Assembly: GCA_021812945.1 (NCBI GenBank)
Contig: JAKAMI010000001.1
Location: forward strand, 3,637 to 67,636
DNA from: a bacterium
GTDB taxonomy: Bacteria; Patescibacteriota; UBA1384; XYA2-FULL-43-10; JAKAMI01
Reading direction: 5' to 3'
Length of the DNA stretch: 64,000 nt
A program made the position numbers and the translations under genes. Of this stretch, positions 33,818 through 56,345 are shown one piece after another. The notes under the pieces were generated by a model, which made no database searches, was not told the origin of the DNA, and saw nothing but the letters and a program-made list of their open reading frames with translations. Position 1 is the first letter of the stretch; each line of letters opens with the position of its first letter.

Positions 33818-33866
33818 TATGCCTAAAGACAGTCTTCACACGCCTAGCAAGACTGTCTTTAGGCAT
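33818..33866. repeat. REP palindrome flanking the RAYT gene (3' side)
   Basis: TATGCCTAAAGACAGTCTTCACACGCCTAGCAAGACTGTCTTTAGGCAT. Confidence 0.85.
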
Positions 33867-34435
33867 TAATCTACATCAAATACATCTGCAGGGAATATCT
33901 GACTGGCATTTTCCATCATTTCGAGAAATGTTCTTTTATTTAATCCCAAAGGGGCCAATAATTTACGATCGCAGTATCTATGTCGAGCGGTATTTGTATG
34001 CTCTCTATAGCTGGAGTACGGATAATCCTCAGGTTGCTTACAAAGATTTTCTTTCACCGGGTTTAGGTGTATGTAATCAACCAGATAATGAAGATATTCA
34101 TCGACAGTTACAATTTTTTGTTTGTACCGATCTTGGAATAAATGACCAATCGAATTATATTTCTTATTAAAAGATTTAGAATAGCTTGTGGTTAAAGGGG
34201 ACATAATTTTGCTTGGGGGATTTTCCAACAGTTGCTTTACCAGTAGATGAAAATGGTTAGGCATCAAACAGTATGCGATGATCGAAAAATCATATTTGTC
34301 GCAATTTTCTTTCAGTCGTTTTAGAAAATATAAATAATCGTAGAAGTCCACAAAAATGTTCCTCTTTTGATTCCCGCGATTGTATAGGTGGTACAGACAA
34401 TTCGGGGCGGATTCCTTATACTTAGAGACACCCAT
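33866..34435 (-). CDS. IS200/IS605-family HuH tyrosine transposase (REP-associated tyrosine transposase, RAYT-like)
   Basis: HuH motif CLMPNHFHLL, catalytic Tyr in GHLFQDRY, N-terminal YHLYNRGN. Flanked on both sides by inverted REP palindromes. Confidence 0.82.
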   Translation of the reverse strand: MGVSKYKESAPNCLYHLYNRGNQKRNIFVDFYDYLYFLKRLKENCDKYDFSIIAYCLMPNHFHLLVKQLLENPPSKIMSPLTTSYSKSFNKKYNSIGHLFQDRYKQKIVTVDEYLHYLVDYIHLNPVKENLCKQPEDYPYSSYREHTNTARHRYCDRKLLAPLGLNKRTFLEMMENASQIFPADVFDVD

Positions 34436-35092: not shown

Positions 35093-35545
35093 TTATCCCC
35101 CGAAGCCGGAAAGTTGAGCCAATTGGCTTAAAGTCTGCGTCCCGGAGACTTTTTGACCGTTGATCGTCCAAGTGGGATAACCCTCGACTCCGGCCGCCGT
35201 GCATTTATCCGGTTGGGCATTTTCGCCTTTTGGATCGCATTCGACATAAGTGATGTATTGCATGGCATCCCCAAAAAGTTTCTTTTGGTCCTGGCAATGA
35301 GGGCACCAATACGCTCCGTAAAAAACCGCCCCTTTTGAGGTTAGAAACTTAGCCAGCGCTACCGGATCGATTCCCGAGGTATCGGTGCTGGCGCCTTTGA
35401 CTTTGCCGGAAGTTACGGATCCAGCGACAGTCGAGTTGGCGGCTTGGTTGTTGCCCGGATTGTTATTTTTATTCGCTTTGATTCCGATAATGACGATAGC
35501 GGCTACTACCACCACAAAAACCACCATAGGTAAAAACTTCTTCAT
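35093..35545 (-). CDS. Secreted thioredoxin-fold thiol-disulfide oxidoreductase (DsbA/VKOR-associated type)
   Basis: Start MKKFLPMVV with RBS GAGGAG. Signal/TM, then WCPHC active site. The ORF-track start at 35677 is an upstream extension. Confidence 0.7.
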   Translation of the reverse strand: MKKFLPMVVFVVVVAAIVIIGIKANKNNNPGNNQAANSTVAGSVTSGKVKGASTDTSGIDPVALAKFLTSKGAVFYGAYWCPHCQDQKKLFGDAMQYITYVECDPKGENAQPDKCTAAGVEGYPTWTINGQKVSGTQTLSQLAQLSGFGG

Positions 35546-35734
35546 CTGACTCCTCTGATTGTAACCGCTCACTGTATTGTCATTCTTAAACCTTAAGTCT
35601 TCCGAAAGATGAGAAATCTCCTGACCTGAAAATATTCTGCAGGGGATTTCTCGCTCGACATGACAGTAAGAGGTCACTTCTAATTTTAAATTGCCACCCC
35701 GCCGACTCTTAACCTCGCGCTGATAGCAAAAAGA

Positions 35735-36391
35735 TTATTTTATCCCTCCGGCGCGGCTATCCGGCTGATTTTCCTCATTTGCCAAAGCTTTACTCTCTCC
35801 GGAAAATTCGAAGAGGCCATTTTTTAAAACATATTTATCGACTAAGTAATTTTTGAGCGGATCATGGTCATAGTCTCTGTTATAGACTAAAATGTCAAGA
35901 CCGTTTTGATCTTGCTGGAAGTCAAATTTCGGTAAATCCGAGACGATACTCCCCGTAGTCGTGCCGTCTTTTTGAAATACCGCTCCCGCCATTCCGTTTG
36001 AGGTTACCTTGACCGCCTCCAGATTTCGCGAATGGGCGCCTACATCCCCTAAAAAAAACAGATAGTCCGTACCGTCAATCAAATAATGATCTTCCAGAGA
36101 GCAAATCTGTTCAAATCCGCTTAGCTCGAGACGCTCTTTCGCTCCGATCAGGTTATATTTCACCAATTCAAACGCGCGGTCTTTGGCATTTTTCTCTTTT
36201 GTCGAGAGGACAAATCTTGTCTTGAACCGATTGTCGTTTAGCTTCAAGTAGTAGGTATCTCGACCGATGGCACCCTTTTCCACCCCGAACGTATCGGCAA
36301 ATACCGAACCGTGGTCATAGATAAAATAAGCTATCACCAGGATCGGCACCATAATCAAACAGCAGATTAATAACTTTCTGGAGAGACTCAT
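35735..36391 (-). CDS. Hypothetical membrane-anchored protein
   Basis: N-terminal TM. No recognisable domain. Confidence 0.4.
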   Translation of the reverse strand: MSLSRKLLICCLIMVPILVIAYFIYDHGSVFADTFGVEKGAIGRDTYYLKLNDNRFKTRFVLSTKEKNAKDRAFELVKYNLIGAKERLELSGFEQICSLEDHYLIDGTDYLFFLGDVGAHSRNLEAVKVTSNGMAGAVFQKDGTTTGSIVSDLPKFDFQQDQNGLDILVYNRDYDHDPLKNYLVDKYVLKNGLFEFSGESKALANEENQPDSRAGGIK

Positions 36392-36528: not shown

Positions 36529-39500
36529 TCATTGTCCCCTCATTTTGGTCAAAAACCTCGGCACCCAGGAGAAAGAACCGGTAATGGCGTCCATAATCAT
36601 CTGGAAGAGCTGTTTCTGCTTGGGCGGAGTGATCAGCGAAAAATCATCGGAAAAAGACTGATTGGCAGACCGATCCTTTGAGGTGACTCTGGCGTGGTAA
36701 GCCGAGTTTGCCTTGAGATCGTTCAGGATAATGACGTGAGTTTGGTTGAGAGACAAGTCCTCCTTTGTTTTCGAATCGTATGTTCCGGAAACCCCTTGGC
36801 CGTATTCGACCTGGCTTGTTGCCGACTCGTCGGTCTCCCAAGAGATGATGGCCTGATATTTGATGGCATTACCCGAACCGCTGGAGGTAATCTCGCTCTT
36901 CAGATTGGAAATGACCGGCGGAGTGGTATCGGCAGTGGTGGTGAAACTTATCTGACCGGAAACCGCGGTGTTGCCGAACTTATCCGTGCCTCTGGCAGTC
37001 GCGGTGTAGCCTTGCTTGGCCACCAAGCCGATGATAGTCACCGAGTGAATGGTGGTAGAATCGGATTTGCCCTGCTGACCCTGCTGGATGGCGGTTGGCG
37101 CATTTTGATCGACAGCCCGGCCTTCAACTTGAATAGCGGCGACGGGGGAGGTGGAAGCAAATTCAACATTGGAATCGGTATTGACGTTGGTATTCCAGGC
37201 GAGGGTGGCCGAGTTGGCCGAAGTCTCAGTAGCTTTGAAATCGGAGATTATCGGCTGCGCCGGAGTGGAAAAGACATAATCGTCCGAGGTGGTAATGTTG
37301 CCGTCCGTGTCTGTGGCTTTGATGCGGAGGTGATAAATGGCGCCGTCTTTAAGCTTGTCAAGCTTAAACTTGTGCTCGGTATTTAAGGTGGTGTCGATCA
37401 GGGTTGCGCCATAGCCGGTGGAATCGCCATAGTCCAAGCTAGTGATCGAGAGTTTGGAGGTGGACCAGGAGACCAGCGCTCCGGTCTGGGTAATGTCGGA
37501 GATAGTGGTGCCGGAAATCAGAAGCAGGATCCGCTCCGGTGTGGTGAAATCCAGCACATCGGAGTAACCAGCAATCTGAATCTCGTTCTTGGAGATAACC
37601 TTAAAGTAGTATTTAGCGGCCGGATCAAGATTGTAAAGCCAGATCTCGTGATTTAGAGTCATCTTCGGATCGCCGGCGATCTTAACGACCCCGCCATTAT
37701 CCGCAGTCATATCATCTTTGGCGTGGATTGAACTGGTCGAATAGGCCACCGAGGAGTCAGCGTTCTGATCGGTATCCCAGCTGATCTTGGCGCGAACTCC
37801 TTGGTCTTGTTTCCAGCCGAAGAGCTCGACCTTGGGTTTGGCCGTGACATCGGGTGCCGAACCGGGTTGAGATGAGAGCGGGCCGGCCGGAATAGAGAGG
37901 TTGCCGGCAGTGTCTTCGGCCTGAACCTTGTAGGCGTAAGTAATGCTGGAGGAGAGGTTAATATCCAGAAAGCCGTTTTTGGTGGTGGTGTCGACCTGAG
38001 AGTAAGTTGCGCCGTCGGTCGAACGGAAAACATGATAAGTCTTGGGTACCGGCACCACGTCATCCCAGACCAACGTCAAACGATACTTATTTGTCGCTAT
38101 GGTTGACCCATCCTTGATGGCAAAGTTGGCCGGCGTGCCATACAGAGTTTTGGAGGTCTGGGTTAAATTGTTCTCAAGATCCCTAAACTTGAAGTAGATA
38201 ATGTTTTTGTTTTGCAAATCAAAGTTATTCTTTGACGTTGCGTAACTCTCCCAGGAACCGCCGGCAAAGCCGGAGTCCATCGAGATCATCATCTGGATCG
38301 GATTTGAGTCATCGGTGACGTTTAAGACCAAGTTGACCGAGCCTCCGGCCGAGGCATCGCTAACAATCGAGTTGACCAACGGGTTCTTGGAGTCCAGAGT
38401 CAACAAGCTGGAATCGGCATAAGCATTTGAGCCTTGAGCGGTGACTTTGACCCGCATCTTGAAGGTGTTGTTCAAGAATTGGCCGTCAAAATCGACTTTG
38501 GGATCAAAGTAGGCGGTGTATTGCGGCAGGCTGGCGTCACCGTTGAAGCTGCCGTTGGTCTGTCCGGATTGAGCAGGGGCCGAAGCATTGGCCCAGGAGT
38601 TGCCGCCGGAGTTAAAGTAAGCGAGACTGACTTGGCTCGGCCAACGCAGTTTATACATCACCTTGACCTTGCCCGGATTGGCCGGATCGGTGCGGTCGAG
38701 CTGGACCGCCGTTACCTCTCTGGGGGCAATGTCGGCCGGCACGGCGTCTAAGGTGATACTCTTGTCGGTTTCAAGGTAAGAGTTGTCCTGTTTTTTGTAG
38801 GCATAAGAAACTTTGTAGTAGTAGTGGTTGCCGTTGGTCAGACCGGTGTCGGTGTAGTCAGTGCGCGTGCCGGCAGTTACCGCCAGCGGGTTGGGAGTGG
38901 TAACGATCTTGCTGTAGTTGGTCGGAAAGGCGGAACAGTCGGTGGTCGGGCTTAAAACGGGGCCTGCGGCGCAACGATAAATATAGGCCTGCGGCGTCAA
39001 GCCAGTGTCGGCCGGTATGTCAAAAGGATTGGTCCAAGTCAGGGTGACTTGCTGATAACCCGGGGCGGCTTCGATCAGATCGTTGACAAGGCCGGTGTGG
39101 TCGGTGGCGGTGTGGCGCGAGCCGGGAATATGAGTGGTAACGTAGACTTTGCTCGGATTGTTGGTCGAGGCCGGAAAGATACCGGTCGAGGCCGGATTTT
39201 TCGAAGGATCGGCCGGTTCAAGCCGCGGATCGGTTTTTTTGGTTGAAGGATCGGTAGCATAAGTCGAAGTTGGATCGACACATTCTGAGGCCGAAAGACT
39301 TTGGTAGCCGCCGGTTTGGAACTTGAAGTAATTTGTCGGGGTGTTTTGCGGAGTAAAGGTATGTGCCCCGAGATCGCCGGCCGGAAACTGGAAACAGCCG
39401 GAAGAGTCGGTCGAAACGGTCTTAGTGTAAGGCAAAACCGCTTGGGCATCGGAAGAATAAAAGTAAACCATACCGGCCTTAGAAGTCGGATCGTAGCCGT

Positions 39501-42500
39501 AGTCGGTTTTGACATTGCCGAAAGCGTCGAAGGCCGTCAGGGTGACATTTTCGCTAAAAGTAGTGTCGACTTGTTTTTCGTAATTGACCGAATTTCGAGA
39601 AATGATCGGGGTGGTGGTAATGCCGAAATGGTCGATCGACTGCGGTTTGACCGTGATGGTAAAGTCGGAAAACTTGTTGCCGTTATCCGAGGTCTTGACC
39701 CGAAAACGCAGATCTGTGCCGGAAGTCACCACGTTGAAACCGCTGCCGGCAAACTGATGAACACCGTTGTCGGCGCCGGTGCCCGAAGTAAAAGTATAAT
39801 GGGTGAGATAATCGTTGGCAAAGGTAAAATTGGCCGTGGAGCTTGCCGGATTGCCCGGGGTATCCGAGCCGCGATAAAGCTCAAACCAGACTTGACCGGT
39901 AAAGTTGTCTTTGACGTTGTTGTAGGCGTCGTAGGCGGTGACGTTGGGATTGTAGGGAGCGGCGGAGAAGCCGGGGGTATCCCAGGTGAAGTTACTCATA
40001 GCAAATCTTTGGGAGGCCGTTTGCGGGTAGGAAGCTAAGCCGAAATGGTCGGTTGAAGCGGCCGTGACGAAAATATTACCAATAGCATCGTATCTACTAC
40101 CTTCGGAGTTGTGCACCACAATTGACTGATTATCCTTGGTCTTTAGAACAAAGCCGGTGCCGGGGAAAGTATGAGCCCCGTTGTCCCCTCCGGCGCCGGT
40201 CGTGAAGGTGTATTTTACAACGTCCGTATAGGGAAAAGTCGCCTGCGAGTCGGAGGAGTAAAACCAGATTTGGCCGGTCCAGTCGTTTTTGGTATTGCCG
40301 TAAACGTCTTTGACCGTGACCACGATGTCATTGGCCGGCGAGGTAAAGGGAGTGCCGGCCACGATGTTAGTCGGATAACCGGAAAGCTGGAAGGAGCCGA
40401 AACCGGCCGGCTTGACGGTGATGCCTTGCGTCGCGTCTGTCCAGCCCAGCGACGGCGTCTCGGAAACAGTGATGGTATAGGGCACGCCCACCGGATTGGG
40501 CGAGGTGTCCTTGTAAAAGAAATTGGCGGAGTTTGAACCGACGCCGATTGTCAGGGTGTTGCTCGGAACCGTGGTCAAGCAACCGCCATCAGAGTAAAAA
40601 TGGCCGGTGGCGGAGTTGGTTTGCAGCACAAAGTTTTTCGCTCCCTCGGTGGCGGTTAAGGCGACGTCCTCGTTAATGACGTTTCGAATGCGATACTCCA
40701 TAATCGCCGAGCAGAAGGTGACGGTAATGTTTTGGGCGGCGGTGGTAAAAGCGGTGTGATCGATCGGAGCCACGGTAAAGGAACGGGCGGCCGAGGCGGC
40801 AGACCAGTGCTTGGAGCCGTCAAAGGAGTCCACACCCTCGGGGTCGTAAGCATAAGCGCGATAGTAAAAGGTGTCGCCCTGATGAAGTGCGGTAGCCAAA
40901 GTCAGCACGGCATCGCGGCCCGAGGAGTAGCCGCTGGTGCCGGCGACTTTGCCGGTAGCCATATCCTGATTGGAGAAATTGGCCGTGCGGTTGCCGTCGT
41001 TTGGCGTTTGCGACACGGTCTCGTCGAAAGTCGAGACATTCTGGCTAAAGCTGGCATCGGTCGCCAGCTGCAACTTATATTGAATCCAGTCACCATCCGG
41101 ATCGGTCGAATTAAAGTGAAAAGCGATAAGTTGAGATTGGTTGATGGCGCCATCAGTCGAGGGCGCGGTAATGGTCGGAGCGCTCGGCGAGTGCTGAACT
41201 TGAATAGTGCCGTTGCCGCCGGCCGCGCCGCCACCAACACCGCAAGTACCGCCGGTGGCAGTCTTGGCGCCGGTATATGTATCAGTAGCCGGATAAATAG
41301 CTATTCGCCCTCCGCCTCCGCCGCCGCCAAAAGAGGCGCTGTTGCCGCCGTTGGCGGTAATGGTTGCGCCGGTGGTGCCGGACAATGTGCCCGAGACAAC
41401 CACTTGCACCGAGCCGCCCGAGCCGCCGCCAAAACCGGCCCCGCCATCGGTACCGTTGGCGGTGATCTTGCCGGTTGCGCCCATCGCCAAGTTGCCGGTG
41501 ACGTTCATCTTGACCATGCCACCGCCGGAGCCGGCGTTACCGGCCCCCGACTGGCCGGCGTGCCCGCCGCCCGAGCCAAGATAATTGTTGTTTGTCTGGC
41601 TGCCGTAGGCCGCGCCGCCAACTGAGCCGCCGGAAGAGTTGCCGCCGGCTCCGCCGTAACCGCCGCCCGAGCCATAGGCCCAGTTGGCCACCACGCTCCC
41701 GTGCCCGGGTCCGGCGTCTTGAGCAAAGCCGTTGCCGTCGGCCGAAACCGTCCCCGAAAGAGTCAGATTGCCCCCGACATTCAAAGTCGGCCAAGCACCC
41801 TGCGTGGGCGTGCCGGAGTTGTCCGAGAGCATCGTGAGGGAAGAATTGGAAGCTATCGTAACCGCCCCGGTAGTGGTGACGATTTGGTTTTTTGAAAGAG
41901 CAAAATTACCCTTGTTGAGGATTGAAATAGAATCAAAAGCGTATGTTGCAGTATCTGTAGATGTTTTGAGAAAAGTATACCCGGGACCAGTGTTACCGTT
42001 ATTGTTAACAATGAGTCTACCATTTGCTTCACCTGGATGTATCTCAAAAACCGTCCCTGCTGATGCATAGAAACCATTATAGGAACCAAGACTATAAGCT
42101 GAGTCAACTCCGTTATATGTCCATGAAGAATTTGCAGAAATCTTGACCCGACCACCACTTCCGGCACCGCAACCAGTCGAGTACCCATTAGCCGATATGG
42201 CCCCATTTCCCGCAAAGTTAACCGTTGTAATATTTATAGAACCACCAGCTGCACTTTGATTGTTTCCCCCATTCGCCAAAATACTATTGGTCGAGTTGGC
42301 GCTTACTGTTCCGGTGGCATTTATTGCCGCTACACCACCACCACCGGTAGAATAGCCACAAACAGCAGTCCCTCCAAGTAACGAAGGATTCGAGTAGTCA
42401 CCAAAAGCATCGCCCTGCGGGTACCCCTGGCCGCCATAACTATAATTACCAGTACCTAATAATCCTTGGGTTGAAACATCTATTTTACCGCCATTCTGCA

Positions 42501-45500
42501 GAGTCAAATTAACAAGGTTAAGTATAAGTTTGTAGCTCTCAGACGTCGTATTTGCTACATGTGACACAACACCACCAGTATCAACAGTCATATTAAAGAG
42601 CGCTCCTCCGCTAGAATCTGTAATTTTACCAGTAATACTCCCCCCACTCGGTGCCTGATACCAGCCTGTATCGCAAAGCGTCGTGCCGTCGGCTTTTTTG
42701 CAGGTCGTACCCATCTCGAGGGTGTAATTCGAAACCGTCCAGCCAGTCGCCGGAACTTTCAGAGTACCATAAACGTCAAGCACACCGCTGGTCGCGCTGC
42801 CTGTAAAAGGAGTATTGGCCGAAATATCTAGTGTTTGGCCCGTAAAGATTGCTAATCGGCCCTGGTTCTTGACAGTTATCACATCAAACACGTACGATCC
42901 ACTGTCGCTTGAGGTTTTAAGGGCTGTGTTTTGAGAAGTCGCTTGGTTCGAGTTATCAATAATAATTTCACCGTTTGCTTCCCCGGGTTTTCTGACAAAA
43001 ACCGTTCCAGCAGCCCCCACATTGCCTCCGCCCCAATTACCACCATAGGCAACAGCTGAACTAACCGAATATGTCCCGGTGGCCTCCAAAGCGATTCTTC
43101 CACCCGATCCTCCGGGGTAAGCACTGCCGTCGCTCGCAGAAACAGTACCGGTACTTGTCAGGTTTGTGGTCTTTAGCCATATGCTACCGCCGGCGCCGTT
43201 TGAGGGCGCATTGGATAAGATACTGCCACTATTTGTCACGCTGGTTGCTATAATTTTGGCTACACCTCCTCCGGCTTGGCCGCCATAGTACTGAGTACCG
43301 CCGCTACCCAAGCGGTTGGGGGAATCATAACTGCCGTATTGGCTATTGGTATATCCATAACCATCACCGCCATATGAGCCACCCCTAGAGTTCAAAGCGC
43401 CGCCGGCCGGTCCCTGAATATATCCCATACCAGAGACGTCTACTTTACCCCCAGTTTGAATAGTTAAAGATCTCAAATTAACAATAAGTTTGTACTGTTC
43501 GGTGCTTGTATTCTGAACTAAATTGTAGGCTTGGGATAATGCTCCACCACTGGCTATCGTCAGATCCACAACATTACCACCAGTCGGATCGGTTATCTTG
43601 CCATAGAGGGTTGTATTGGCCGTAGTGTCGTCCCAACCGGGATCGCATCCGCCCCCGGCATTTTTGACACAACTGGTGCCGACGCCTAGAGTATAATTGG
43701 ATACCGTATAACTGGTCGGGACTTTGATCGTACCAAAAGTAGTTAGAGACCCAGTGCCATCCCCGCCGATAGTGGTGCCCGAAGTAATATCGAAAACCTT
43801 AGAGGTTCCGTTAATATCAAGTTTTCCGCCGGAATTGAGAGTAATGGCCGTAAAAGTGCTTCCGCCCGTGGAATTTTGAACGCTGTTCGACGAGGCTCCG
43901 TTATCAACGAGTCTGAAGCCGGAAATTGTTGGCGAATCTTTGAGCTTTATTACTCCGGTAGCCTTGATAAGCCCGGTACAATAGTAGCCGATAGCGTCAG
44001 CGCCACCGCCGTAAGTATTGCAGGCGCCACCGCCGGTAATGTCAAAAGCTGAGGCGTTTACGGTTTGGCCGGAAACAATTTCCAGCCGGCTTCCCTTATT
44101 GACTGTGATTGCATCAAACGTATATACCCCTGTGTCAGTCTCTCCCATCAGGGTTGCGCCAAGATCTGAGCCGTTGTCGAGACCGGCGTTATCCAAAACT
44201 AATCGCCCATTGGTGTCCCCAGGCCGTTTCTCATAAACCGTGCCGTTACCCCCGGCATCATTCCAGCCATCAACTACCTTGCTTGCCGACTCAGTTCCGC
44301 TAAAAGACCAAACGCCCGTTGCATAAATCGCTAATCGTCCACCACCGCCCGATGACGGAGCACAACAGCCATTTGAACCGCTCCTAGTCACGACTGAACC
44401 GTTACCCGAAAAGGACGCCGAGGTTATCCAAATACTACCTCCCGAGCCTCCGCCAGAACCTGTACCCGATGCCGACATTGTTCCGTTAACCGCCACTGAA
44501 CCGGTTGAGGTGATTTTGATCGCCCCACCAGAATTACCGCCACTGCCCAAGCTTACCGGTTGTGAATAACTCCCATAAGTAGCGTGGGTAGAATTATTAG
44601 CTGATCTGCCTCCATACTCACTGGTCGTTTTTAAGCCGGGGCCGTTTGATTTGCCTTTTGCGTCAGCGTTCATATTACCGTTGGTACCAATAACAAGACT
44701 GCCTACGGCATATTCATTCCCCCGCCCGTCAGCCAAACTACCATGCAATACAGTCGTGTCTCCGTCCGAGGTCACTATACCAGAATTGATAATAAATTCG
44801 CCGGTAATATTAATCTTATACGGGTCAACGTTCTGCGACGGCTTATTTTGAAAATTAATCGTGCCGGAGTAACCGGTCTCCACATATAGGCCGCCGAGAC
44901 CATCGACAATACCGTTGCCGGAGGTGAAAGTTGTTACCGTGCAATTTTGGACCGAAGATGGGTCAAAGACAACGATGTCGCCAGCCGCCGGCGCCCCTGA
45001 AGGCGTCCAGTTGGCTGCGGTTTCCCAGTTTCCGGCTGCCGCGGCGGTCCAGCGTTTGACACTCGGGGCGTAGTTTAAATTGTAAGGGCTGGCCGTACCG
45101 GAGACAAAGACCACCGGAGAATAGGAGTTAATGCCGCTGTTTCTGTTTGTAAATATTTTCGCGGATGCGGCCACCCAAGCGAACGAACCACTTAACGTCG
45201 CATTGTGCCCACCGCTAGAGGAATCGGCAGCTAATGTTCCAGATCCTTCATCAAAATGCCACAACCCAACGGTATTGCCGTCGGTTGTAAACTGATTTAT
45301 TGGGGGGGGAAAACTAGATGTATAACGCGCGATGTTTGAGATTCTAAGTTCGTCGATTGTTCCAAAATTTTGCCCTCCATAGGCCATACTGTTGCCAAGC
45401 ACAGTAATATCATCTGTCAGCTGCATATTTGCCGTCCCAACAAGCAAGCCGTCAATATACATTTTCGTCGTCCCGGAACTGCCAACCCCAGTAAGATAAT

Positions 45501-48210
45501 GCCACCCTGAAGTTAAACTAGTTACATTATAATTCGACGTGTAGAAGTTCCCGTTATAAACCCCCAACTGGCCATCTCTTTCAACAACAATATGCTGGTT
45601 ACTTATGGTGCCCTTTACAAGTGTCCGACGACCGTCACCGGTTGTTGGCAAAGGAAATTGCACCCACGCCTCCACTGTCCAAGTGCTACCAATTACAACA
45701 TTTGATACAGTGCCAGAACCAGAACTTGGGGAATTAAAGTTTATTGCTGCATTACTGGATCCCGTTTGCGTAACAGGTGTCGGCTTCAGTGCTGCCTGGG
45801 CGATCAGGTTGTTGCCGTTATCGGTGGTGACGGCCACGGCCACGCCGAAAGTGCCGGCAGAGCCGATTTTTTCCGCATACTTGATATTGTAAGAATTGAC
45901 CCCGACGTATTCCGAGTAGTAAAGGTAGATGGCATCGTTTAAGCCCAGGCCGAGACTGGGATTTTTGTCATTGGCGTGGCTGGCGCCGGTGGTGACGGCG
46001 GTTGAGGCGGCGTCCCAGCTGGCGGCGGCGTTGGCACATTTGCGGTATTTGATCCCGACCGAGTTGTCTTTCCAGGCCAGATGGAGGTAGTGATCGCTGG
46101 TTTCCTGCCCGATCGAGAACTCTTGGTTTAGGGCGGTTCCGACATCGGAGGCGATGGTCTCGTTGGCCCAGCCGGCCGTTTGGAAAGTGCCGGCAGTGGC
46201 GTAGTTCCACCTGAGAGAAGCATTGGCGAAGTTGTAGATAACAGCCGGATTATCATTCCAGAGAGTGAGGGCGGGGTAAGTGGCGGCATTGGTGTTGACG
46301 GCGGCCGATAATGTTGACGCCGCACCCCAAGTCGAGCCGTCGGCGGCAGTTGAGGCTTTGGCTTTGATAGTGTAGTTGGTGGCATCATAATACCGATAAG
46401 CGACAAAGATGGTGCCGGAAGATGTGACCGCAACGGCGGGGAAAGCCTGGGAAGTGCCGGCGCTCTCGACGGTTCTTTCGGTGCCGGTGGAGGTGATGGC
46501 GTGGGTAGCGGTGTCATAGGTCATCTGGCGGTAGAAGATGTAAGAGTTGGTGCCATTGTTGGAGTAGGCCAGATGGATCTTGTTGTCGGCGGTAATCCAA
46601 GAAGAGAAGCCGTAGTCATCGGTTAGAGTCGAGGCAAAGATTTGGGTGCCGGTGGCGCTCCAGGTGTTGCCGTGGTCGGAAGAGATTTTATATGAGAGGC
46701 CGTTACCGTCGGAGTAGATGTTGACCATATCCCCGTTGGTCGCCTCCAGTAGCGTCCGGTCTTTGGAGAAGGAGTTGGGGTTGGTGGTGGTGGAGGTAGC
46801 GACGGTGACGGTGGGGTCAATGGTTAGAGGATACTCAGGCGAGCCAAGACAGTCTTTCGGGGCATTGGCAAAGACTGTCTGGTTGCCGCTGCCTGAAAGA
46901 CTGTTGTCGCTGCCCGGAGACGACAGTCTTTGCCGGTAACAGGCATTGGTTTGAGCCAGCCAGTTTGGATCGATCTCATAGCGAGCTAGGTTGGCGCTTT
47001 GGTCTAGGGTTAGTTTAATCTTGTCGTCGAAATGATTGCCGGTTTTATCGGTTAAGGTCGCTTTGAGTAGGGTGAAGAGTCCCTCCTGAGTTTGTTGGTC
47101 TTTTAGCACATAGGAGCTGTCCGGGTTAGAGATGATACTTAAGTTGCTTAAATTACTTAAGTTAAAATCAATGGATGAAATGCTTCCAAGAGCTTTGGGT
47201 GAGTTTAGAACAAGGTCTTCTTTGAGCTTACCCGGGCTGACTTGGTAGTTGGCGGTAATCTCGGGGTTGATCTCGAGGGAGTACTTTTGCTTGGCTCCGT
47301 CGTTTTCGCGGATCTTGACACCGGAGGCAACCTCTTTCTTGGTTTTGACGTCATCCGATGTAACAGCTTTTGGCACATTGGGAGTATTTGTCTCGTTGGT
47401 CAGATTAGTCCCGTTGGTCGGGTTGGAACTGTCCGATGGAACATCAGCGGCTTGAGCAGTTTCAGCGAAGACAGCTTCAGCCAAGACAGTCTTTTTAGCT
47501 TCAGCAAAGACAGTCTTGTTGCTCCCCGAAAGACTGTTATCACTGCCCGAAGATGACAGTCTTTGCCGGTTTAAGGCAACCTGATCTTTGGGGACTAGAA
47601 GATCGAAACCGACTTTTCTAACCTCACCGTCTTTGTTCTGGGTAGCCACCGAGACCGAGGCATTTCTGGTTGTACGATCGGAGAGGTTGACCGTTAGCTG
47701 GTCGGAAGAACCGGTGATCGCGGCCGAGTCGTCAACTTTACCTTTGGCTTTTTCCTGAACATTGGGAATGTCCGCTCGCGAGCCGACAACAGCCACCGAA
47801 ACCGATTTAAGTCCGGAGAAAGGCTGATTGGCTTTTGTCTCCGAAAACGAGGAGGCATACAAGCTCAGCCCGAACACAAAAGACAGGCAGACCAAAGCCA
47901 AAGCTGAAATGTTTATCTTGGAGGCGTTGGGGTTTAAGTGCCAGAGGTAGTACCACCGCCACTTCATCCTGAGATTGTTGTGGACCGGGATAAAGAATCG
48001 AAAGCTAGTGCGAGTCGAGTTTTGAATGGACATCAACTGATTATTGAGCTTGGATTCGACATCCTGGCCACTGAACGATTCCGGTAATTTACCGGAAAGT
48101 TTGGCTGACCGGATAATTTTTTGCACCAGAAAAACGGCCGCCCCTTTAGGGAAAGTCAGAATTTTATGGATGATGTACCGGATTTTTAACATATAACCAC
48201 TAATAATCAC
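36529..48210 (-). CDS. Giant (3,893 aa) surface/adhesin-like protein. N-terminal membrane anchor, LamG-like lectin, BNR/Asp-box, long Gly/Ser-rich parallel beta-helix repeats, multiple FN3-like domains.
   Basis: Single uninterrupted ORF. BNR motif SDHGNTWS, LamG-like [19 protein letters not shown], extensive GGSGG/SGGSGGRI repeats, FN3-like C-terminal modules. Contains two in-frame REP-derived segments. Confidence 0.8.
46848..46935. repeat. REP-derived segment embedded in-frame in the giant protein gene
   Basis: CAAGACAGTCTTTCGGGGCATTGGCAAAGACTGTCTGG...GAAAGACTGTTGTCGCTGCCCGGAGACGACAGTCTTTGCC. Encodes [29 protein letters not shown]. Confidence 0.65.
47465..47575. repeat. REP-derived segment embedded in-frame in the giant protein gene (second copy)
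   Basis: GAAGACAGCTTCAGCCAAGACAGTCTTTTTAGCTTCAGCAAAGACAGTCTTG...GAAAGACTGTTATCACTGCCCGAAGATGACAGTCTTTGCC. Encodes [36 protein letters not shown]. Confidence 0.65.
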
Positions 48211-48221
48211 TAAAACTCAGT

Positions 48222-48260
48222 GATAACAGTCATTTTAAATGCAGTAATGACTGTCATCTT
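48222..48260. repeat. REP-like palindrome variant (AACAGTCATTTT...TAATGACTGTCAT) upstream of the giant gene
   Basis: GTGATAACAGTCATTTTAAATGCAGTAATGACTGTCATC. Confidence 0.6.
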
Positions 48261-48859
48261 TTTTGAATATATTTTTTGAGCAAATCAGCCAAATCGGAAG
48301 CCGAGGGCACCGCCGAGACCCCTTGCCGCAAAATCTCGATCGCCCGATCGGTCTTATTATCATTGTAATACATCACCGCCAGATTCATATACGAATAGGT
48401 TAGATGCGGATCGAGTCCGATGGCTTGTTTGTAGGCTGATTCGGCTTTTTCGGTTTGATTCTGATCCCGATAGATGTTGCCAAGATTGTTATAAATCATT
48501 GCGATTGACGACTTATTGGCTTTAGGGGACTGGGAAGCGATCGCGTAATACTTTTCGGAGCCGGCATAATCTTTTAAGCCGTAGTAGGCCATGGCTAGGC
48601 TGTAAACGGTGTTGTAATCGTTTGGTCTGAGCTCGTTTGCCTGCAACAATTTATCGACGCTTTCCTGATAGTTGCGGTTTGAAAGCGCTTCCTGGCCTTG
48701 GTTGAATAATTCGGTCGCCCGCTTGTTCCGCTTCTCGTCAGAATTTTTCTTCGATTTGGGCAACAGAATAAACAGCAGGACCAAAACAACCGCCAAAACA
48801 ATCAGCGCAATCAAAAGTTTGAACCAGCGTTTTTTTCTAATGTTTTTTGGATTGGTCAT
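48254..48859 (-). CDS. TPR-repeat protein with N-terminal TM anchor
   Basis: Three or more TPR units (YSLAMAYYGLKDYAGSEKYY, NLGNIYRDQNQTEKAESAYKQAI, MNLAVMYYNDNKTDRAIEIL). Confidence 0.75.
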   Translation of the reverse strand: MTNPKNIRKKRWFKLLIALIVLAVVLVLLFILLPKSKKNSDEKRNKRATELFNQGQEALSNRNYQESVDKLLQANELRPNDYNTVYSLAMAYYGLKDYAGSEKYYAIASQSPKANKSSIAMIYNNLGNIYRDQNQTEKAESAYKQAIGLDPHLTYSYMNLAVMYYNDNKTDRAIEILRQGVSAVPSASDLADLLKKYIQKR

Positions 48860-48906
48860 AGGTTAATCCCCATTTGCCCAATTGGACAAATTAGTCCAAT
48901 TGGTTT

Positions 48907-49086
48907 TTACCGGACAATACCGGCCAGCATTCTCACTACGAAAATGGCCATAGCGAAGCCGAAAACGGCACACAAGAAATAAATCAGAAAAGTAACCACA
49001 TACCAGCTTGACTGGCGCGTGATCACCAGCTTGGCCAGATCTTCTTCCGACACCGTGTATTTATGATTTTGAACGGTAGCAACCAT
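48907..49086 (-). CDS. Small hypothetical membrane protein (~59 aa), below the ORF-track cutoff
   Basis: MVATVQNHKYTVSEEDLAKLVITRQSSWYVVTFLIYFLCAVFGFAMAIFVVRMLAGIVR. Confidence 0.35.
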   Translation of the reverse strand: MVATVQNHKYTVSEEDLAKLVITRQSSWYVVTFLIYFLCAVFGFAMAIFVVRMLAGIVR

Positions 49087-49089
49087 AGA

Positions 49090-49235
49090 TTCCTAAAATT
49101 CTAAACTCTAAATTCTAAATCCTAATGAAATTCAAAGCTTCAAATTCAAAAACCCTAAACTTTTTTGAGTTTTGAATTTCAAAATTTTGAATTTTTTTAG
49201 AGTTTAGAGTTTCGGATTTAGAGTTTTTAGACATC
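49090..49235. repeat. Large nested palindrome built from TCTAAA(T/C) heptamer arrays and TTTGAATTT inverted core
   Basis: CCTAAAATTCTAAACTCTAAATTCTAAATCCTAA ... ATTCAAAGCTTCAAATTCAAAAA/TTTGAGTTTTGAATTTCAAAATTTTGAATTT ... TTTAGAGTTTAGAGTTTCGGATTTAGAGTTTTTAG. Confidence 0.7.
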
Positions 49236-49263
49236 GGTCCCAAGTAATTAATTTAGTTTGCTA

Positions 49264-50448
49264 TCATTCATATCTTAAAGCGTCTAGCGGATTCAGTTTA
49301 CTGGCTCTTTTGGATGGATAAAAACCGGTTGAAAACCCCACCAGCACCGAAAAAGCGATGATCCCGGCCGCCAGCCACCAAGGCGTGTAAAAAAGAGTCT
49401 GCGCCTCTCCTCCGACACTTTTGGCCAGAAGATTGATGATGATGTTGATGGCATAGCCGGTGACCAGACCGACCACCGTGCCCATAATACCGCCGAGCGT
49501 CGCGATCATTGTAGACTCCGACAGAAATATTTTTGCCACATCGATATTGTAAACCCCGATAGCTTTCATAATCCCGATGTCGCGGGTTCTTTCCAAAAGG
49601 GCGATGGTCATGGTGTTAAACATCCCGATAGCCGCTACGATCAAAGCGATGACCCCGAAAAGGGCCAAAACTATTTGAATGATTTTGAAGATTTGATCGA
49701 CTTGAGAGATCGTATCGGCTATAGAGGTGACCGTAAATCCGAGATCTTCAATGCTTTTTCTGGCCTCGGGAATCTTAGTCTGATCGGTAACTTTGGCTTT
49801 GATCGAATTGAACACGGTGGTATCCAAAACCCTGTCGGTATAGTTCTTCAGTGGGGCGTAAGCAAAACTGGTTGAATCATCGGCGACAATTCCCGATACC
49901 TTGTAATCCGTTTTTTGCTCTTCCGGCTGACCCTTGGCATTGGCAAAAACCAAGTTCAGGGTAACGGTTTGACCGATCATATTTTGCAGGTCTGCTCCCA
50001 ACGCTTTGGCTAGAGCGCTTGAGACTACTATCTCTTTACCCGAGTCGGTAAATAAACTGCCGAGTGAAGTTTTGGTGCCGTCGAGAGCAAAAAAGTTTTC
50101 ATCGACCAGATTGGCGACTAAGTCGGTTTTCTTACCGCTCAAGTCTATTTTTGACCCCACCATCATCACCGGCGACACTTTCTCGATACCGGGAAATGTT
50201 TTTATTTTTTCTGCGGTTTTTTTGTCAAGCTTGTTGAGATCCGATTTGCCGGCCGCCACGTCCAAAGTATTGATAGCCTCGATAGAGGCAATTTTTTTGA
50301 CCGATAGATTTTGCAAGCCGTAGCCCAAAGAGACCAAAAAAACAATAGCTCCGATGCCCACGGAGATACCGGCGACTGTCAAAATAGTCCTCATTTTATT
50401 GGACTTAAGATTTGACAGTGAGATTCTTAGGACCTGGCTAAACTTCAT
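49264..50448 (-). CDS. ABC transporter permease, FtsX/MacB-like
   Basis: N-terminal TM, large periplasmic loop, C-terminal FtsX-type four-helix region. Confidence 0.8.
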   Translation of the reverse strand: MKFSQVLRISLSNLKSNKMRTILTVAGISVGIGAIVFLVSLGYGLQNLSVKKIASIEAINTLDVAAGKSDLNKLDKKTAEKIKTFPGIEKVSPVMMVGSKIDLSGKKTDLVANLVDENFFALDGTKTSLGSLFTDSGKEIVVSSALAKALGADLQNMIGQTVTLNLVFANAKGQPEEQKTDYKVSGIVADDSTSFAYAPLKNYTDRVLDTTVFNSIKAKVTDQTKIPEARKSIEDLGFTVTSIADTISQVDQIFKIIQIVLALFGVIALIVAAIGMFNTMTIALLERTRDIGIMKAIGVYNIDVAKIFLSESTMIATLGGIMGTVVGLVTGYAINIIINLLAKSVGGEAQTLFYTPWWLAAGIIAFSVLVGFSTGFYPSKRASKLNPLDALRYE

Positions 50449-50576
50449 ACTTTCCTTAAATTACCAATAATCAACGATCAATGATCAATTAATTATCAAT
50501 GGACAAGGGGGAAATGAAAATTAATACTTGATTATTAAATGATAATTGAAAATTGATATTTGAAAATTGAATCCGG
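50449..50576. repeat. Solo copy of the AT-rich core found in the three rnpB insertions (TGATCAA-rich half plus TTGAAAATTGATATTTGAAA half), lacking the terminal hairpins
   Basis: CAATAATCAACGATCAATGATCAATTAATTATCAATGG...TTGAAAATTGATATTTGAAAATTGAAT matches the rnpB insertion cores. Confidence 0.6.
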
Positions 50577-51332
50577 CTACTGTCCGATGACGTGCTCTGA
50601 CGGCTTGAAACCGCCAACGTCTTTGATCGGTACCCGAGCGTGATTCTTATCTATCTTGTCTATCAACCCGTCTTTGAGGCGGATTACCCGATTAGCGTAT
50701 TTGAGATAATCCGGGTTGTGGGTGACCATAATGATCGTCTTTTTTGATTTTTGATTTAGGGTATTGAAAATACCCATAACCTCGCCAGCGGATTTCGAAT
50801 CCAGATTGCCGGTCGGTTCGTCGCAAATCAGAATCCAAGGGTTGGTGGCTAGCGCTCTAGCCATGGCCACTCGTTGCTGCTGGCCTCCGGAAAGCTCGGT
50901 CGGAATATTTTTTAAGTGGTCTTTGAGCCCGAACATTACCAAAAGATCCTCGGCGCGGTTCAAGGACTTGTAATAATCTCCTCCGGAGGACAAAAGCGGC
51001 AAGGCCACGTTTTCCTGAACCGTCATGGATTTTAGAAGGTTAAAGGACTGGAAGACTATGCCGATCTTGCTCTGGCGGAACTTGGCCATCTGGTTCGGGT
51101 CGTAATTGGCCAGCTCCTCGCCGCGAATTTTCAGGCTGCCTTCCGAGACGTTTTCCAGACCGGAGACGATATTGAGCAGAGTCGATTTACCGCAACCGGA
51201 AGGGCCGAAGATGATAATGAATTCGCCCGATTCGATATCAAAAGACACCCCTTTGATGACTTCGATCACGTTCGCCCCGAGATCAAATTTTTTCTTGATG
51301 TTTTTGGCTTCGATAACCTTAGTTTTCGCCAC
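50577..51332 (-). CDS. ABC transporter ATP-binding protein (MacB/LolD-like)
   Basis: Walker [10 protein letters not shown], signature [15 protein letters not shown], Walker [13 protein letters not shown]. Confidence 0.9.
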
Positions 51333-51389
51333 CTTATCCCCTCCGCCTTAGAACTTAAGTCTGTAGCGTTTTCAACTAAGATATGTCAT

Positions 51390-51475
51390 CCTGAGCTAAT
51401 TTCTGTCATCCTGAGCCTGCGAAGGATCTATTCCATAGACAAAGATTCTTCACTGCATTCAGAATGACAGTCTAA
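51390..51475. repeat. Degenerate MITE-hairpin copy (left boundary of GC-rich islet)
   Basis: ATGTCATCCTGAGCTAATTTCTGTCATCCTGAGCCTGCGAAGGATCTATTCCATAGACAAAGATTCTTCACTGCATTCAGAATGACAGTCT. Confidence 0.65.
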
Positions 51476-51669
51476 GTTGAAATGTGCAACAGCAGTATTT
51501 ATATACATCATAGCAGGAATGAGAAAACATCGTCAACGGTATTTACATCAAGATAATTATCTGATAAAAATGAATTGATGACTAAGCCAATCTGCCAAAA
51601 CATAATTAGCAATATCGTTACCCCAACCTCATAGGCGGTGGTGTTGTTTAGCTGGCCAAAAGATGATTA

Positions 51670-51695
51670 ACCCCGCCGCAGACGGGGTTTTTGTT
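51670..51695 (+). terminator. Intrinsic terminator-like hairpin plus T-run
   Basis: AACCCCGCCGCAGACGGGGTTTTTGTTTT. Confidence 0.5.
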
Positions 51696-51770
51696 TTATG
51701 CTTGGGCTGAAGGGACTTTTCTTCGGCCGAAGATGTGAGACAAAAACGCGAGAGATGGAGGTTAGAGACG

Positions 51771-52058
51771 ATGCCAATGTCGCATAAGCAAGCAGAGTCG
51801 TTGGTGAGAAAAGTTCGAGCCCAGATCAGACAGGAGGCAAACGCGAGAATTACAGCCATCAGGGCTGAGTCCGCCCGGGCGCAAGGACTTGTCGCCGTCC
51901 TTGACGAAGATAATGATTCGACCATTACGATCGGGGGGATTCACTGCTTCAACGAGATGGCTACCTACCAATCAGATAGCCAGATCATCAACAACTTGGT
52001 TGAGAAGGCCCAGCAGAAAGCAGCTACGCGGGCTCTTACACCCGCGACTTCTACCTGA
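51771..52058 (+). CDS. Hypothetical protein (95 aa) in GC-rich islet
   Basis: RBS GGAGG 8 nt upstream. GC-rich codon usage unlike neighbours. Translation MPMSHKQAESLVRKVRAQIRQEANARITAIRAE... Followed by the GC palindrome GGCCCCGGGGCCGACCGGCCCCGGGCC. Confidence 0.45.
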   Translation: MPMSHKQAESLVRKVRAQIRQEANARITAIRAESARAQGLVAVLDEDNDSTITIGGIHCFNEMATYQSDSQIINNLVEKAQQKAATRALTPATST

Positions 52059-52146
52059 AGCCGCGACGGTCAAGACACAAGCAGGCCCCGGGGCCGACCG
52101 GCCCCGGGCCCAACTGCTCCTGACATTGTTTGCTTGGTTTGATAAT

Positions 52147-52288
52147 ATTAGTTTGTAGCAAAATGTGGCTTGTTCCGTCATCCTTAAGCTGATGTCTGTG
52201 ATCCTTAAGCTTGTTCTGTCATCCTGAGCTTGCGAAGGATCTCTACTTATGGAATAGATCCTTCGCAAGCTCAGGATGACAAAATACG
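52147..52288. repeat. MITE-like element with perfect 24-bp hairpin arms (right boundary of GC-rich islet)
   Basis: ATTAGTTTGTAGCAAAATGTGGCTTGTTC...GTCATCCTGAGCTTGCGAAGGATC-TCTACTTATGGAATA-GATCCTTCGCAAGCTCAGGATGAC. Near-identical to 56385..56485. Confidence 0.85.
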
Positions 52289-52319
52289 ACGATAGACTCT
52301 AATTATTCACATCTGGTCT

Positions 52320-55441: not shown

Positions 55442-55474
55442 TAAACTGCTTAAGTGAACCGGGTAATAGCCCTA

Positions 55475-55641: not shown

Positions 55642-55738
55642 CTGGGGAGGAAAGTCCGGGCACCAAAGAGTATGGCACCAATGAAAGTTGGCTGGCGTAA
55701 TGCCACGGGAATAGTGCAACAGAAAACATACCGCCGAA

Positions 55739-56250: not shown

Positions 56251-56345
56251 CGAGGTACAGAACCCGGCTTATAGGTTCGTTTAAGCACAGAGCTACATTT
56301 AGGCCTCCGTAACTTTATGGCCTGTCCCCTTCGGGGGAATGTGGC

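Follow-up and report, generated by a model that had tools for sequence, protein, structure and literature searches.

A giant surface protein gene linked to MacB-type ABC and TPR genes in a presumptive Berkelbacteria-like member of the candidate phyla radiation

Introduction

How bacteria belonging to the candidate phyla radiation (CPR; also called Patescibacteria) attach to other cells is largely unexplained outside a few cultured Saccharibacteria, in which type IV pili, a type IV secretion system (T4SS) and unnamed adhesins have been implicated. Nanohaloarchaeal SPEARE proteins are large surface proteins proposed as host-interaction factors. The same role has been suggested for large surface proteins of CPR bacteria (PMC13059738). 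Until now, each such giant was regarded as an orphan gene on its own, and comparison from genome to genome was difficult. The 64,000-nucleotide stretch of contig JAKAMI010000001.1 analysed here (the window) encodes a protein of 3,893 amino acids (aa), hereafter the giant, whose gene follows genes for an ATP-binding cassette (ABC) ATPase, a MacB-type permease, a small membrane protein and a tetratricopeptide repeat (TPR) protein. A first-pass annotation, made from the letters and the translated open reading frames (ORFs), had likened this arrangement to an adhesin with its export module. Do the neighbouring genes belong with the giant and, if so, what could a MacB-type pair do for a surface protein? 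We report that the linkage of giant, ABC and TPR genes is conserved and that the proteins so linked share a C-terminal signature. These two points are new; the components themselves are of known kinds (type VII ABC pair, TPR protein, LamG, BNR and FN3 modules), and giant CPR surface proteins were already candidates for host interaction. A literature search, incomplete in coverage and so yielding absence of evidence only, found no description of the giant-MacB-TPR cassette or of its tail signature.

An intact giant gene

The giant gene extends over positions 36529..48210 of the minus strand, beginning with GTG at 48210 or ATG at 48192 and encoding 3,893 aa followed by a stop. Translation gave one ORF of 3,893 codons with no internal stop, in keeping with the single unbroken 11.7-kb frame of the first-pass annotation. 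An exact-protein look-up placed the locus in six independent assemblies, all of them from one strain. The DNA from 39264 to 54000 is 100% identical in GCA_021842785.1, GCA_021842565.1, GCA_027460745.1, ERZ27237563 and ERZ27237541, and ERZ27237587 differs by two mismatches. Because the same DNA recurs in six assemblies, the ORF is not the product of a frameshift error. A frameshifted pseudogene and a single-assembly artefact were both ruled out; the frameshifts and internal stops against which the first-pass annotation had cautioned were looked for and none was found.

The window, which also carries the genes for RpoB, GyrA, GyrB, IF-2, RuvAB, the tmRNA and the RNase P RNA, is ordinary chromosome. 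The nearest named relatives of the permease are from Candidatus Berkelbacteria (71% and 57% identity), so the genome is probably that of a Berkelbacteria-like member of the CPR, an assignment that follows the names of the permease relatives and is not a phylogeny. The CPR-like cell envisaged at first pass agrees with it.

Orthologues of the giant emerged from an exhaustive HMMER search. Word-indexed searches were insufficient for this purpose, giant residues 441-1060 retrieving one weak match. The orthologues comprise proteins P0135 (3,989 aa), P0138 (3,174 aa) and P0139 (3,903 aa), as well as the giants of loci L019-L022, L031 and L034. A scan of GTDB species representatives with the N-terminal 1,019 aa returned weak LamG matches only and no orthologue, and PDB sequence searches with three segments of the giant gave no significant match.

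Conserved linkage of the giant gene to ABC and TPR genes

Reading along the minus strand, the giant gene is preceded by genes for the ABC ATPase (251 aa; 50577..51332), the permease (394 aa; 49264..50448), a small transmembrane (TM) protein (59 aa; 48907..49086) and the TPR protein (201 aa; 48254..48859). The TM-anchored TPR protein, small membrane protein and FtsX/MacB permease with its ATPase that had been described upstream on the same strand were thus all found, by Pfam match and translation and, for the small protein, by its TM helix.

Contigs encoding relatives of the permease at 44-71% identity were examined for neighbouring genes, and a metagenome scan with the permease alignment provided 80 further loci. 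Where the permease is at least 47% identical to that of the window, a homologous giant adjoins the ABC pair in 13 of the 14 informative distinct loci. The ATPase gene adjoins the permease gene in the related loci with enough upstream sequence, and orthologues of the TPR protein, with its TM helix, occur in at least 20 cassette loci. Gene order varies, with at least three arrangements represented: ATPase-permease-small-TPR-giant, TPR-giant-ATPase-permease, and giant-ATPase-permease with or without a TPR gene beyond. Thus, locus L019 reads TPR-ATPase-permease-small-giant (3,440 aa); L020 and L021 read giant-ATPase-permease (giants of 3,557 and 3,186 aa, respectively), and L022 has the same three genes (giant of 3,058 aa) with a TPR gene further on. 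The series ATPase-permease-small-TPR of L017 and L018 is followed by an ORF that is cut by the contig end and whose N-terminus carries the basic tail and W..W motif of the giant. Two loci were found via a giant orthologue: L025, whose genes run TPR-giant (3,903 aa)-ATPase-permease and are 1-8 nt apart, and L024, where a TPR gene and a giant gene (3,989 aa) run up to the contig end. Intergenic gaps within cassettes are often 1-10 nt.

One metagenome-assembled genome (MAG), GCA_002070055.1, carries two cassettes, and in each of them the permease and the giant are closest to the same foreign cassette. Across loci, divergence of the permease correlates with divergence of the giant's C-terminal region (Mantel r=0.79, p<=0.0005). 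When the permeases were placed in a neighbour-joining tree, loci coupled to the tail described below occupied particular clades, and one clade of 18 loci, including L023 beside a ribosomal/SecY cluster, has a tail-bearing neighbour in 0 of 18. Since the linkage recurs in many divergent genomes and in differing gene orders, the TPR and ABC genes are not accidental neighbours of the giant; the synteny comparison supports the earlier suggestion that the TPR gene and the MacB-like pair belong with it.

The two genes directly downstream of the giant gene (35093-35677 and 35735-36391, both on the minus strand) were considered as further members and rejected, having no counterparts in other cassette loci. 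One encodes a TM-anchored thioredoxin-like protein of 194 aa with a WCPHC motif, possibly an extracytoplasmic disulfide oxidoreductase; the other encodes a 218-aa TM protein to which no function was assigned. The giant contains several paired cysteines, and a DsbA-like gene adjoins the TPR gene in L022.

A C-terminal tail shared by the linked proteins

The last residues of the giant (aa 3856-3893; 36532..36645, minus strand) form a predicted amphipathic helix of ~30 aa with the family consensus TP-x-K-x-x-S-h-h-Q-h-I...F-[SG]-W-h-x-K (h, hydrophobic residue). The helical hydrophobic moment of this tail, 0.42-0.54, is in the top 1% of the giant's windows, but on average the tail is not hydrophobic enough to form a TM helix. 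A hidden Markov model (HMM) was built from 15 tails and run against every ORF of 50 aa or more, both in the window and in the full set of retrieved loci. It matched 33 ORFs of 107 to ~4,000 aa, some of them truncated at contig ends. The match fell within the last ~35 residues of the ORF in 33 of 33 cases, and all 33 ORFs lay on the permease strand. Nearly all directly adjoin the ATPase-permease pair, typically ending 5-350 nt upstream of the ATPase gene and sometimes placed just downstream of the permease gene; one weak match, in L096, is 4.4 kb downstream. The unrelated loci L007-L015 and the rest of the window gave no match. Within ~1.2 Mb of flanking DNA, the motif is thus confined to ORFs of the ABC neighbourhood.

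The carriers of the tail are proteins of ~1,100 to ~4,000 aa, apart from a mini-protein in L019. The same motif is borne by large ORFs of distant loci, where permease identity is 40-44%, that terminate a short way upstream of the ATPase gene. Distant members of the family begin with an ordinary signal peptide or another N-terminus, in place of the anchor of the giant (see below). It is for this reason that the tail, and not the anchor, is the universal feature, and it can be regarded as the family signature. No Pfam or NCBIfam model covers it. When the tails were scanned against NCBIfam/TIGRFAM at E<=10, no sorting-domain model was returned, and the only match was a sub-threshold one of the FN3 region to the MXAN_2561 family model. 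The first-pass annotation had overlooked both the tail and the conserved C-terminal module of ~1,550 aa that ends in it. Module, signature of ~30 aa and fixed partner set now make the family definable, and profile searches can locate such cassettes in any genome.

The mini-protein of L019 is encoded by a 124-aa ORF (8117-8512) just upstream of the TPR-ATPase-permease genes. Its K/E-rich N-tail of the giant type is fused to the last half of an FN3 domain and a high-scoring tail, so that it looks like an internal-deletion remnant or a miniature giant.

The partner proteins

The ATPase is of the LolD/MacB nucleotide-binding type (Pfam ABC_tran, E=6e-37) and has intact Walker A, signature (LSGGQQQR) and Walker B (ILICDEP) motifs. 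The permease matches MacB_PCD (E=2.5e-25; 90 bits, cut-off 27) and FtsX (E=7.8e-20; 72 bits, cut-off 25.5), and consists of a first TM helix, an extracytoplasmic MacB_PCD domain of ~215 aa and three TM helices of the FtsX type. Its closest solved structure is MacB (5gko), matched over the full length at E=2.5e-32, ahead of YtrF, Spr0695, LolF, LolE and LolC. The best NCBIfam matches of the ATPase are to LolD, MacB and FtsE-type domains, all under the cut-offs (LolD TIGR02211, 212 bits against 308; FtsE, 203 against 265). Lol and FtsX models likewise stay below cut-off on the permease (TIGR02212, 92.7 bits against 362; FtsX models, 34-42 bits against 225-255), which carries a full MacB_PCD domain, unlike FtsX proteins with their short extracytoplasmic domain. 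The two proteins are a MacB-type (type VII) ABC pair.

The small TM protein has a single C-terminal TM helix; orthologues of 55-63 aa likewise follow the permease in L016, L017, L018, L019, L027 and L028. The pattern WY..T..Y..C..GF..A is conserved in the helix. Pfam and NCBIfam scans gave no match for this protein, which occurs in the closer loci and is a predicted accessory subunit of the cassette. The TPR protein (Pfam TPR_2/1/8, E=1e-15 to 1e-18) has a short basic N-terminus, one TM helix and ~150 aa of TPR repeats, which are probably extracytoplasmic.

Genes for components of other ABC-dependent systems were sought in the same neighbourhoods. No HlyD-type adaptor or TolC (OEP) gene was found in the window cassette or in any of the ten neighbourhoods with compiled gene and Pfam tables (L016-L025), and no LolA-like gene was seen in the cassette neighbourhoods. 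As regards the type 1 secretion system (T1SS) of RTX proteins, exporter, HlyD adaptor, TolC and RTX nonapeptides were all undetected in the window cassette and related neighbourhoods. Neither a sortase nor an exosortase or rhombosortase gene lies beside the cassette; in L020, a sortase gene occurs ~5.5 kb from the permease gene.

The cassette ATPase is much longer in many related loci. In L018 (8985-9998) it has 337 aa, with a C-terminal extension resembling RNA_pol_A_CTD/HHH_5; in L023 (7957-9720) it has 587 aa, and ATPase ORFs of ~445-500 aa are found in L044, L048, L068, L086, L092 and L098. Because they exceed the 251 aa of the window protein, these versions suggest extra cytoplasmic domains on the motor subunit.

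Architecture of the giant

The first 121 residues (47848..48210, minus strand) contain an N-terminal tail, a W-Y-x-x-W-H-x-N-P motif and a TM helix. By hydropathy scan, the helix at aa 99-121 is the single hydrophobic one in the whole protein; a basic segment of ~100 aa (aa 1-98), ending in the WYxxWHxNP motif, precedes it. The motif and the K/E/R-rich tail are kept in P0135, P0138, P0139, L017, L018, L019, L031, L073 and L091, and some orthologues have K/E/R-rich N-tails longer than that of the window giant. Since this conserved segment and motif precede the sole TM helix, the N-terminus is predicted to be a type II signal-anchor rather than a cleaved signal peptide.

The anchor is followed by a Ser/Thr/Asn-rich spacer (aa 122-479; 46774..47847, minus strand), in which self-comparison revealed a motif of ~40 aa occurring twice (aa 212-251 and 423-463) and a Pfam scan found no match. 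Residues ~480-800 (45811..46773, minus strand) are assigned to a six-bladed beta-propeller of the sialidase fold. Homologues of aa ~446-810 recovered in the exhaustive search match Pfam BNR_2, and the segment contains one perfect S-x-D-x-G-x-T-W Asp-box, SSDHGNTW. The BNR/Asp-box element reported at first pass stands on these two grounds; a Pfam scan of the giant itself produced no direct BNR match. The six-bladed propeller fold with Asp-boxes that characterises exo-alpha-sialidases (GH33) is present. The F/Y-R-I-P motif is not, and no canonically placed Arg triad is evident: the conserved arginines R485, R561 and R606 are confined to the first blades, and a nine-sequence alignment shows invariance for none of them. 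Residues invariant in the propeller family are E578, E582, H710, D748, Y768 and Y778. Foldseek, run on the propeller-containing model, ranked carbohydrate-binding lectin propellers at the top. The protein was not classed as a sialidase.

A LamG (concanavalin A-like lectin) module lies at aa ~834-962 (45325..45711, minus strand), where Pfam Laminin_G_3 scores 42.5 bits against a gathering cut-off of 27.6 (E=9.2e-11); the exhaustive search with the giant returned thousands of LamG matches. An AlphaFold2 (AF2) model of aa 440-1639 covers the propeller and part of the Gly-rich repeats that follow, the LamG part being poor.

The Gly-rich region (aa ~1060-2335; 41206..45033, minus strand), delimited by internal repeats and rung motifs, comprises four units of ~310-420 aa with 31-43% mutual identity, each with three GGxIxI rungs spaced at ~30 aa. 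The AF2 model of the first unit (aa ~1050-1390) is all-beta, with a predicted local distance difference test score (pLDDT) mostly of 70-88 and a few ten-residue blocks at 36-56. A word-indexed search with aa 1461-1900 found four weak external homologues, one of them with Pfam PF10162. The beta-helix-type repeats proposed at first pass are upheld in so far as repeats, rungs and an all-beta model are there; no match to a beta-helix was obtained, either from a Pfam scan of the giant over this region or from fold searches of the AF2 model, whose match lists were filled by the propeller. We consider a beta-solenoid shaft probable.

The remainder of the protein up to the tail (aa 2336-3855; 36646..41205, minus strand) is the conserved family module. 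From aa ~2336 to 3893, neighbouring giants share 39-57% identity with that of the window across ~1,300-1,570 residues. Three Ig-like repeats of ~125 aa each occupy aa 2592-2952 and are followed by a Pro/Thr linker; at least four matches to Pfam fn3 or Pur_ac_phosph_N fall within aa ~3470-3860. The AF2 model of aa 2336-3535, computed from a four-sequence alignment, has a mean pLDDT of 51.6 and a strand pattern resembling beta-sandwiches. The module is probably all-beta and of the Ig/FN3 type, tentatively so for aa 2336-3330, for which the model is of low confidence. By comparison, the N-terminal halves of orthologous giants are mosaics in which the propeller is present or absent, LamG occurs in one or two copies and the number of Gly-rich repeats varies. 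The propeller is missing from the giants of L019, L020 and L022, and that of L022 has a DUF2341 domain in its place.

The domain scan thus found the adhesin-like architecture anticipated by the first-pass annotation (LamG, fn3 and a BNR_2-like propeller), in which the N-terminal membrane anchor, the LamG-like lectin module and the FN3-like modules had each been recognised correctly. RTX, BIg and Cadherin-type repeats were not detected in the giant. A polymorphic toxin or contact-dependent inhibition protein was considered and rejected, as there is no toxin, protease or nuclease domain and the C-terminus is conserved rather than a variable tip.

Proposed role and alternative explanations

The explanation that we favour, with some reserve, is a conserved five-gene surface-fibre cassette of Berkelbacteria-like CPR bacteria, in which the giant would be inserted through Sec, the ABC and TPR proteins would act on its external tail, and the fibre would serve in glycan-directed attachment. 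Type VII ABC proteins act through mechanotransmission on substrates already outside the cytoplasmic membrane and, to our knowledge, have no transmembrane protein channel. We infer Sec insertion and an action on the tail from outside because the pair belongs to this class, because HlyD and TolC genes were not found in the neighbourhoods with gene tables and because the giant has a signal-anchor of its own. The same three points speak against the "export" part of the module proposed at first pass, which we therefore regard as unlikely. By its signal-anchor, the giant could enter the membrane along the general Sec/YidC route, leaving ~100 aa in the cytoplasm and placing ~3,770 aa outside in the order spacer, propeller and LamG, Gly-rich beta-solenoid shaft, Ig/FN3-type chain of ~1,550 aa and amphipathic end helix of ~30 aa. 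The ATPase and permease would form a mechanotransmission machine with neither adaptor nor outer-membrane duct, and would not carry the giant across the membrane. Acting jointly with the TPR protein and the small TM protein of 59 aa, they would convert cytoplasmic ATP hydrolysis into an action on the tail at the outer face, be it docking or anchoring, extraction from the membrane surface, or the driving of a conformational or assembly step. Analogies are offered by LolCDE, which handles lipoprotein anchors, and FtsEX, which works with extracytoplasmic partners. TPR domains commonly bind C-terminal peptides, and the TPR protein is for this reason the natural candidate for a tail receptor. The prediction made by the cassette is a definite and testable interaction between proteins. 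In view of its lectin-type modules, the fibre most likely serves in glycan-directed attachment, be it to another cell or to a surface, and in line with proposals for other large CPR surface proteins (PMC13059738) a function as an adhesin in host attachment is plausible.

The ATP-driven work on an external partner is borrowed from the class of MacB, LolCDE, FtsEX and YbbAP-TesA (e.g. PMC5985334, PMC8333309, PMC12646458). The cassette permease shares with these systems the first TM helix, the MacB_PCD domain and the three further TM helices, and the cassette also has their separate LolD/FtsE-like ATPase with intact motifs; MacB is the best structural match. Unlike MacAB-TolC, it has neither a MacA-type adaptor nor TolC; unlike LolCDE and FtsEX, it includes no LolA carrier and no partner of the EnvC/PcsB type. 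What distinguishes it from all the classical type VII systems is the partner, a surface protein of 1,100-4,000 aa with an amphipathic tail, accompanied by a TPR protein and a TM protein of ~60 aa.

A bolder reading, possible but doubtful, is that the tail, a MacB-type pair lacking a membrane fusion protein, the TPR protein and the ~60-aa protein constitute an undescribed ATP-powered system by which CPR bacteria sort, anchor or actuate surface proteins. From its cytoplasmic side, the cell might then be able to hold a giant fibre for host contact, deploy it or work it mechanically, with a logic like that of sortase/LPXTG or Lol but built on a type VII ABC machine. A short conserved C-terminus on diverse surface proteins together with a dedicated membrane machine is what the cassette has in common with LPXTG/sortase, PEP-CTERM/exosortase, the C-terminal domain (CTD) of the type 9 secretion system (T9SS) and the T1SS signal. 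It differs from these known C-terminal sorting systems in that the partner is a type VII ABC pair with a TPR protein and in that there is apparently one substrate per cassette. The tail does not have the layout of a motif with a TM helix and a basic cluster behind it, and it has no match to a curated NCBIfam/TIGRFAM sorting model such as those for LPXTG, PEP-CTERM, MYXO-CTERM and the T9SS CTD. If the tail is indeed recognised by the ABC and TPR proteins, it would represent a new type of C-terminal sorting signal, and the MacB/Lol/FtsEX class would gain a new task, that of managing giant surface fibres in ultra-small bacteria of a monoderm-like kind.

As to the giant itself, its very large size and its targeting by membrane anchor or signal peptide are shared with the Absconditicoccaceae proteins of more than 1,500 aa (PMC13059738). 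FN3, concanavalin A/LamG-type and other adhesion-type modules are likewise found in large CPR surface proteins (PMC13059738). The large CPR/DPANN proteins and the giant all come from ultra-small, host-dependent lineages; for the former, no MacB-type ABC/TPR partner and no shared C-terminal motif were found in the literature searched, and the giant differs from them in that no protease, nuclease or toxin module is detectable in it. With LapA, MpIBP, FrhA, Embp and SprB it has in common a long stalk, repetitive and rich in beta structure, lectin-type modules for ligand binding and a dedicated accessory system encoded nearby. Unlike in those proteins, the repeats are of other families than RTX, BIg or Cadherin-type. 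In contrast with RTX/Bap-type and LPXTG adhesins, the giant is anchored by an N-terminal TM helix, the variable modules are near the anchor with the conserved module distal, and the partner is not a T1SS, a T9SS or a sortase.

Several points weigh against the fibre cassette as we picture it. Locus L016, the closest of all (71% permease identity), keeps ATPase, permease, small protein and TPR gene with no giant within 10 kb, so the partners can exist without an adjacent giant, and some half of the well-flanked loci with more distant permeases contain no tail-bearing ORF. Shared species phylogeny could account for most of the Mantel correlation. Conserved synteny is evidence of functional association and not of physical contact, and it is from synteny that the tail has been connected to the ABC pair or the TPR protein. 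An N-terminal TM helix combined with a membrane-held tail would tether the fibre at both ends, which is unusual for an adhesin; variable lectin-like modules nearer the anchor than the conserved module are the reverse of what most adhesins display. Models of moderate or low confidence underlie the assignment of the shaft to a beta-solenoid and of aa 2336-3330 to the Ig/FN3 type, and the propeller could be an enzyme.

The lone accessory genes of L016 would be accounted for if the ABC pair, the TPR protein and the small protein made up a general envelope or housekeeping system (for instance, efflux of antimicrobial peptides or lipids, or an FtsEX-like control of a wall hydrolase) with which the giant is merely co-transcribed or co-regulated. 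Many permease relatives have no large neighbour, as in L023 next to its ribosomal/SecY cluster, and the NCBIfam matches (LolD, MacB, FtsE, DevA) are all generic and below cut-off, as such a system would have it. However, the association of giant and ABC genes has outlasted repeated rearrangement of gene order, holds in nearly all of the informative close loci and was duplicated as a unit in one MAG, and it tracks a C-terminal motif found nowhere else in the flanking DNA. Moreover, the tail-less permeases form separate clades, which suggests that they are the housekeeping paralogues. We consider this explanation unlikely.

A further rival, which we also rate as improbable, concerns the giant: it may not be primarily an adhesin. 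It might be a surface protein with an enzymatic or predatory function, cutting host glycans or wall polymers by means of a sialidase-fold propeller and a lyase-like beta-helix, or else a structural, S-layer-like fibre of the envelope, the ABC and TPR proteins serving assembly in either case. Right-handed beta-helices are common in polysaccharide lyases and hydrolases. The invariant acidic, histidine and tyrosine residues of the propeller family would suit such a role, and degradation of cell walls has been proposed for giant proteins of other ultra-small or predatory bacteria (bioRxiv 10.1101/2023.11.21.568195). Against this, Pfam and NCBIfam scans found no catalytic domain, the FRIP motif and a canonically placed Arg triad are wanting, and Foldseek gave precedence to lectin propellers. 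In addition, the propeller and LamG modules are missing or swapped in orthologues (L019, L020 and L022 are without the propeller, and the last has DUF2341), which suggests exchangeable binding heads rather than a core enzyme.

Finally, export of the giant by the MacB-like transporter in the manner of RTX adhesins, with the tail as secretion signal, would agree with the strictly C-terminal position of the motif and with the substrate logic of T1SS, where a conserved C-terminal signal accompanies a dedicated ABC system, but it is very hard to sustain, since the permease is of the MacB_PCD/FtsX family and not a T1SS exporter fold, the type VII class has, as far as is known, no substrate channel, the N-terminal signal-anchor or signal peptide of the giant and its distant relatives implies Sec, no adaptor or TolC gene was found in the neighbourhoods with gene tables, and CPR cells are thought to lack an outer membrane.

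Other features of the window

The ~990 nt upstream of the cassette (51333-52319) have no convincing ORF and no Rfam match. The best hit of a promoter scan lies there, upstream of the ATPase gene (51507..51536, minus strand): a sigma-70-like sequence with 10 of 12 consensus positions and an extended -10, put forward as candidate cassette promoter from the consensus match alone. The same stretch contains a strong bidirectional terminator-like hairpin at 51669-51689. A near-perfect hairpin repeat of ~80 nt (TGTCATCCTGAGCTTGCGAAGGATC...GATCCTTCGCAAGCTCAGGATGACA) is present in at least two intergenic copies (52208-52286 and 56405-56483), with a half copy at 51401-51451, which is ~70 nt upstream of where the ATPase gene starts. 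The repeat may be an element of the repetitive extragenic palindrome or miniature inverted-repeat transposable element type, or a terminator.

Divergent from the cassette, and at the same position in the other assemblies of the strain, is the gene for a 588-aa protein with two Lamin Tail Domains and OB-fold (tRNA_anti-codon/BOF-like) regions (52320-54086, plus strand). A second large putative surface protein, of 1,133 aa, is encoded at 22192-25593 (plus strand); it combines a PQQ_2/BamB-like propeller with a Big_7 Ig domain and lacks the tail motif. About 2 kb downstream of the giant gene are genes for an IS200-like Y1 transposase (33866-34435, minus strand) and a PD-(D/E)XK/Cas4-like nuclease (33067-33804, minus strand). 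GyrB (16312-19053, minus strand) contains an intein (Pfam Intein_splicing, aa 525-667) between its GyrB and Toprim domains.

The RNase P RNA gene (55607-56287, plus strand) measures 681 nt, against 367 positions in the Rfam model, and contains two large insertions of ~170 and ~155 nt. In each insertion there is a copy of a 182-nt unit to which the 5' P1-P3-like segment of the gene itself also belongs (...AAUUAAUCUUUGAUACUUCCGCGCUUUGCGCGG...), the repeats lying at 55460-55641, 55731-55912 and 56069-56250. Such a self-repeating pattern of insertions is unusual for a ribozyme gene.

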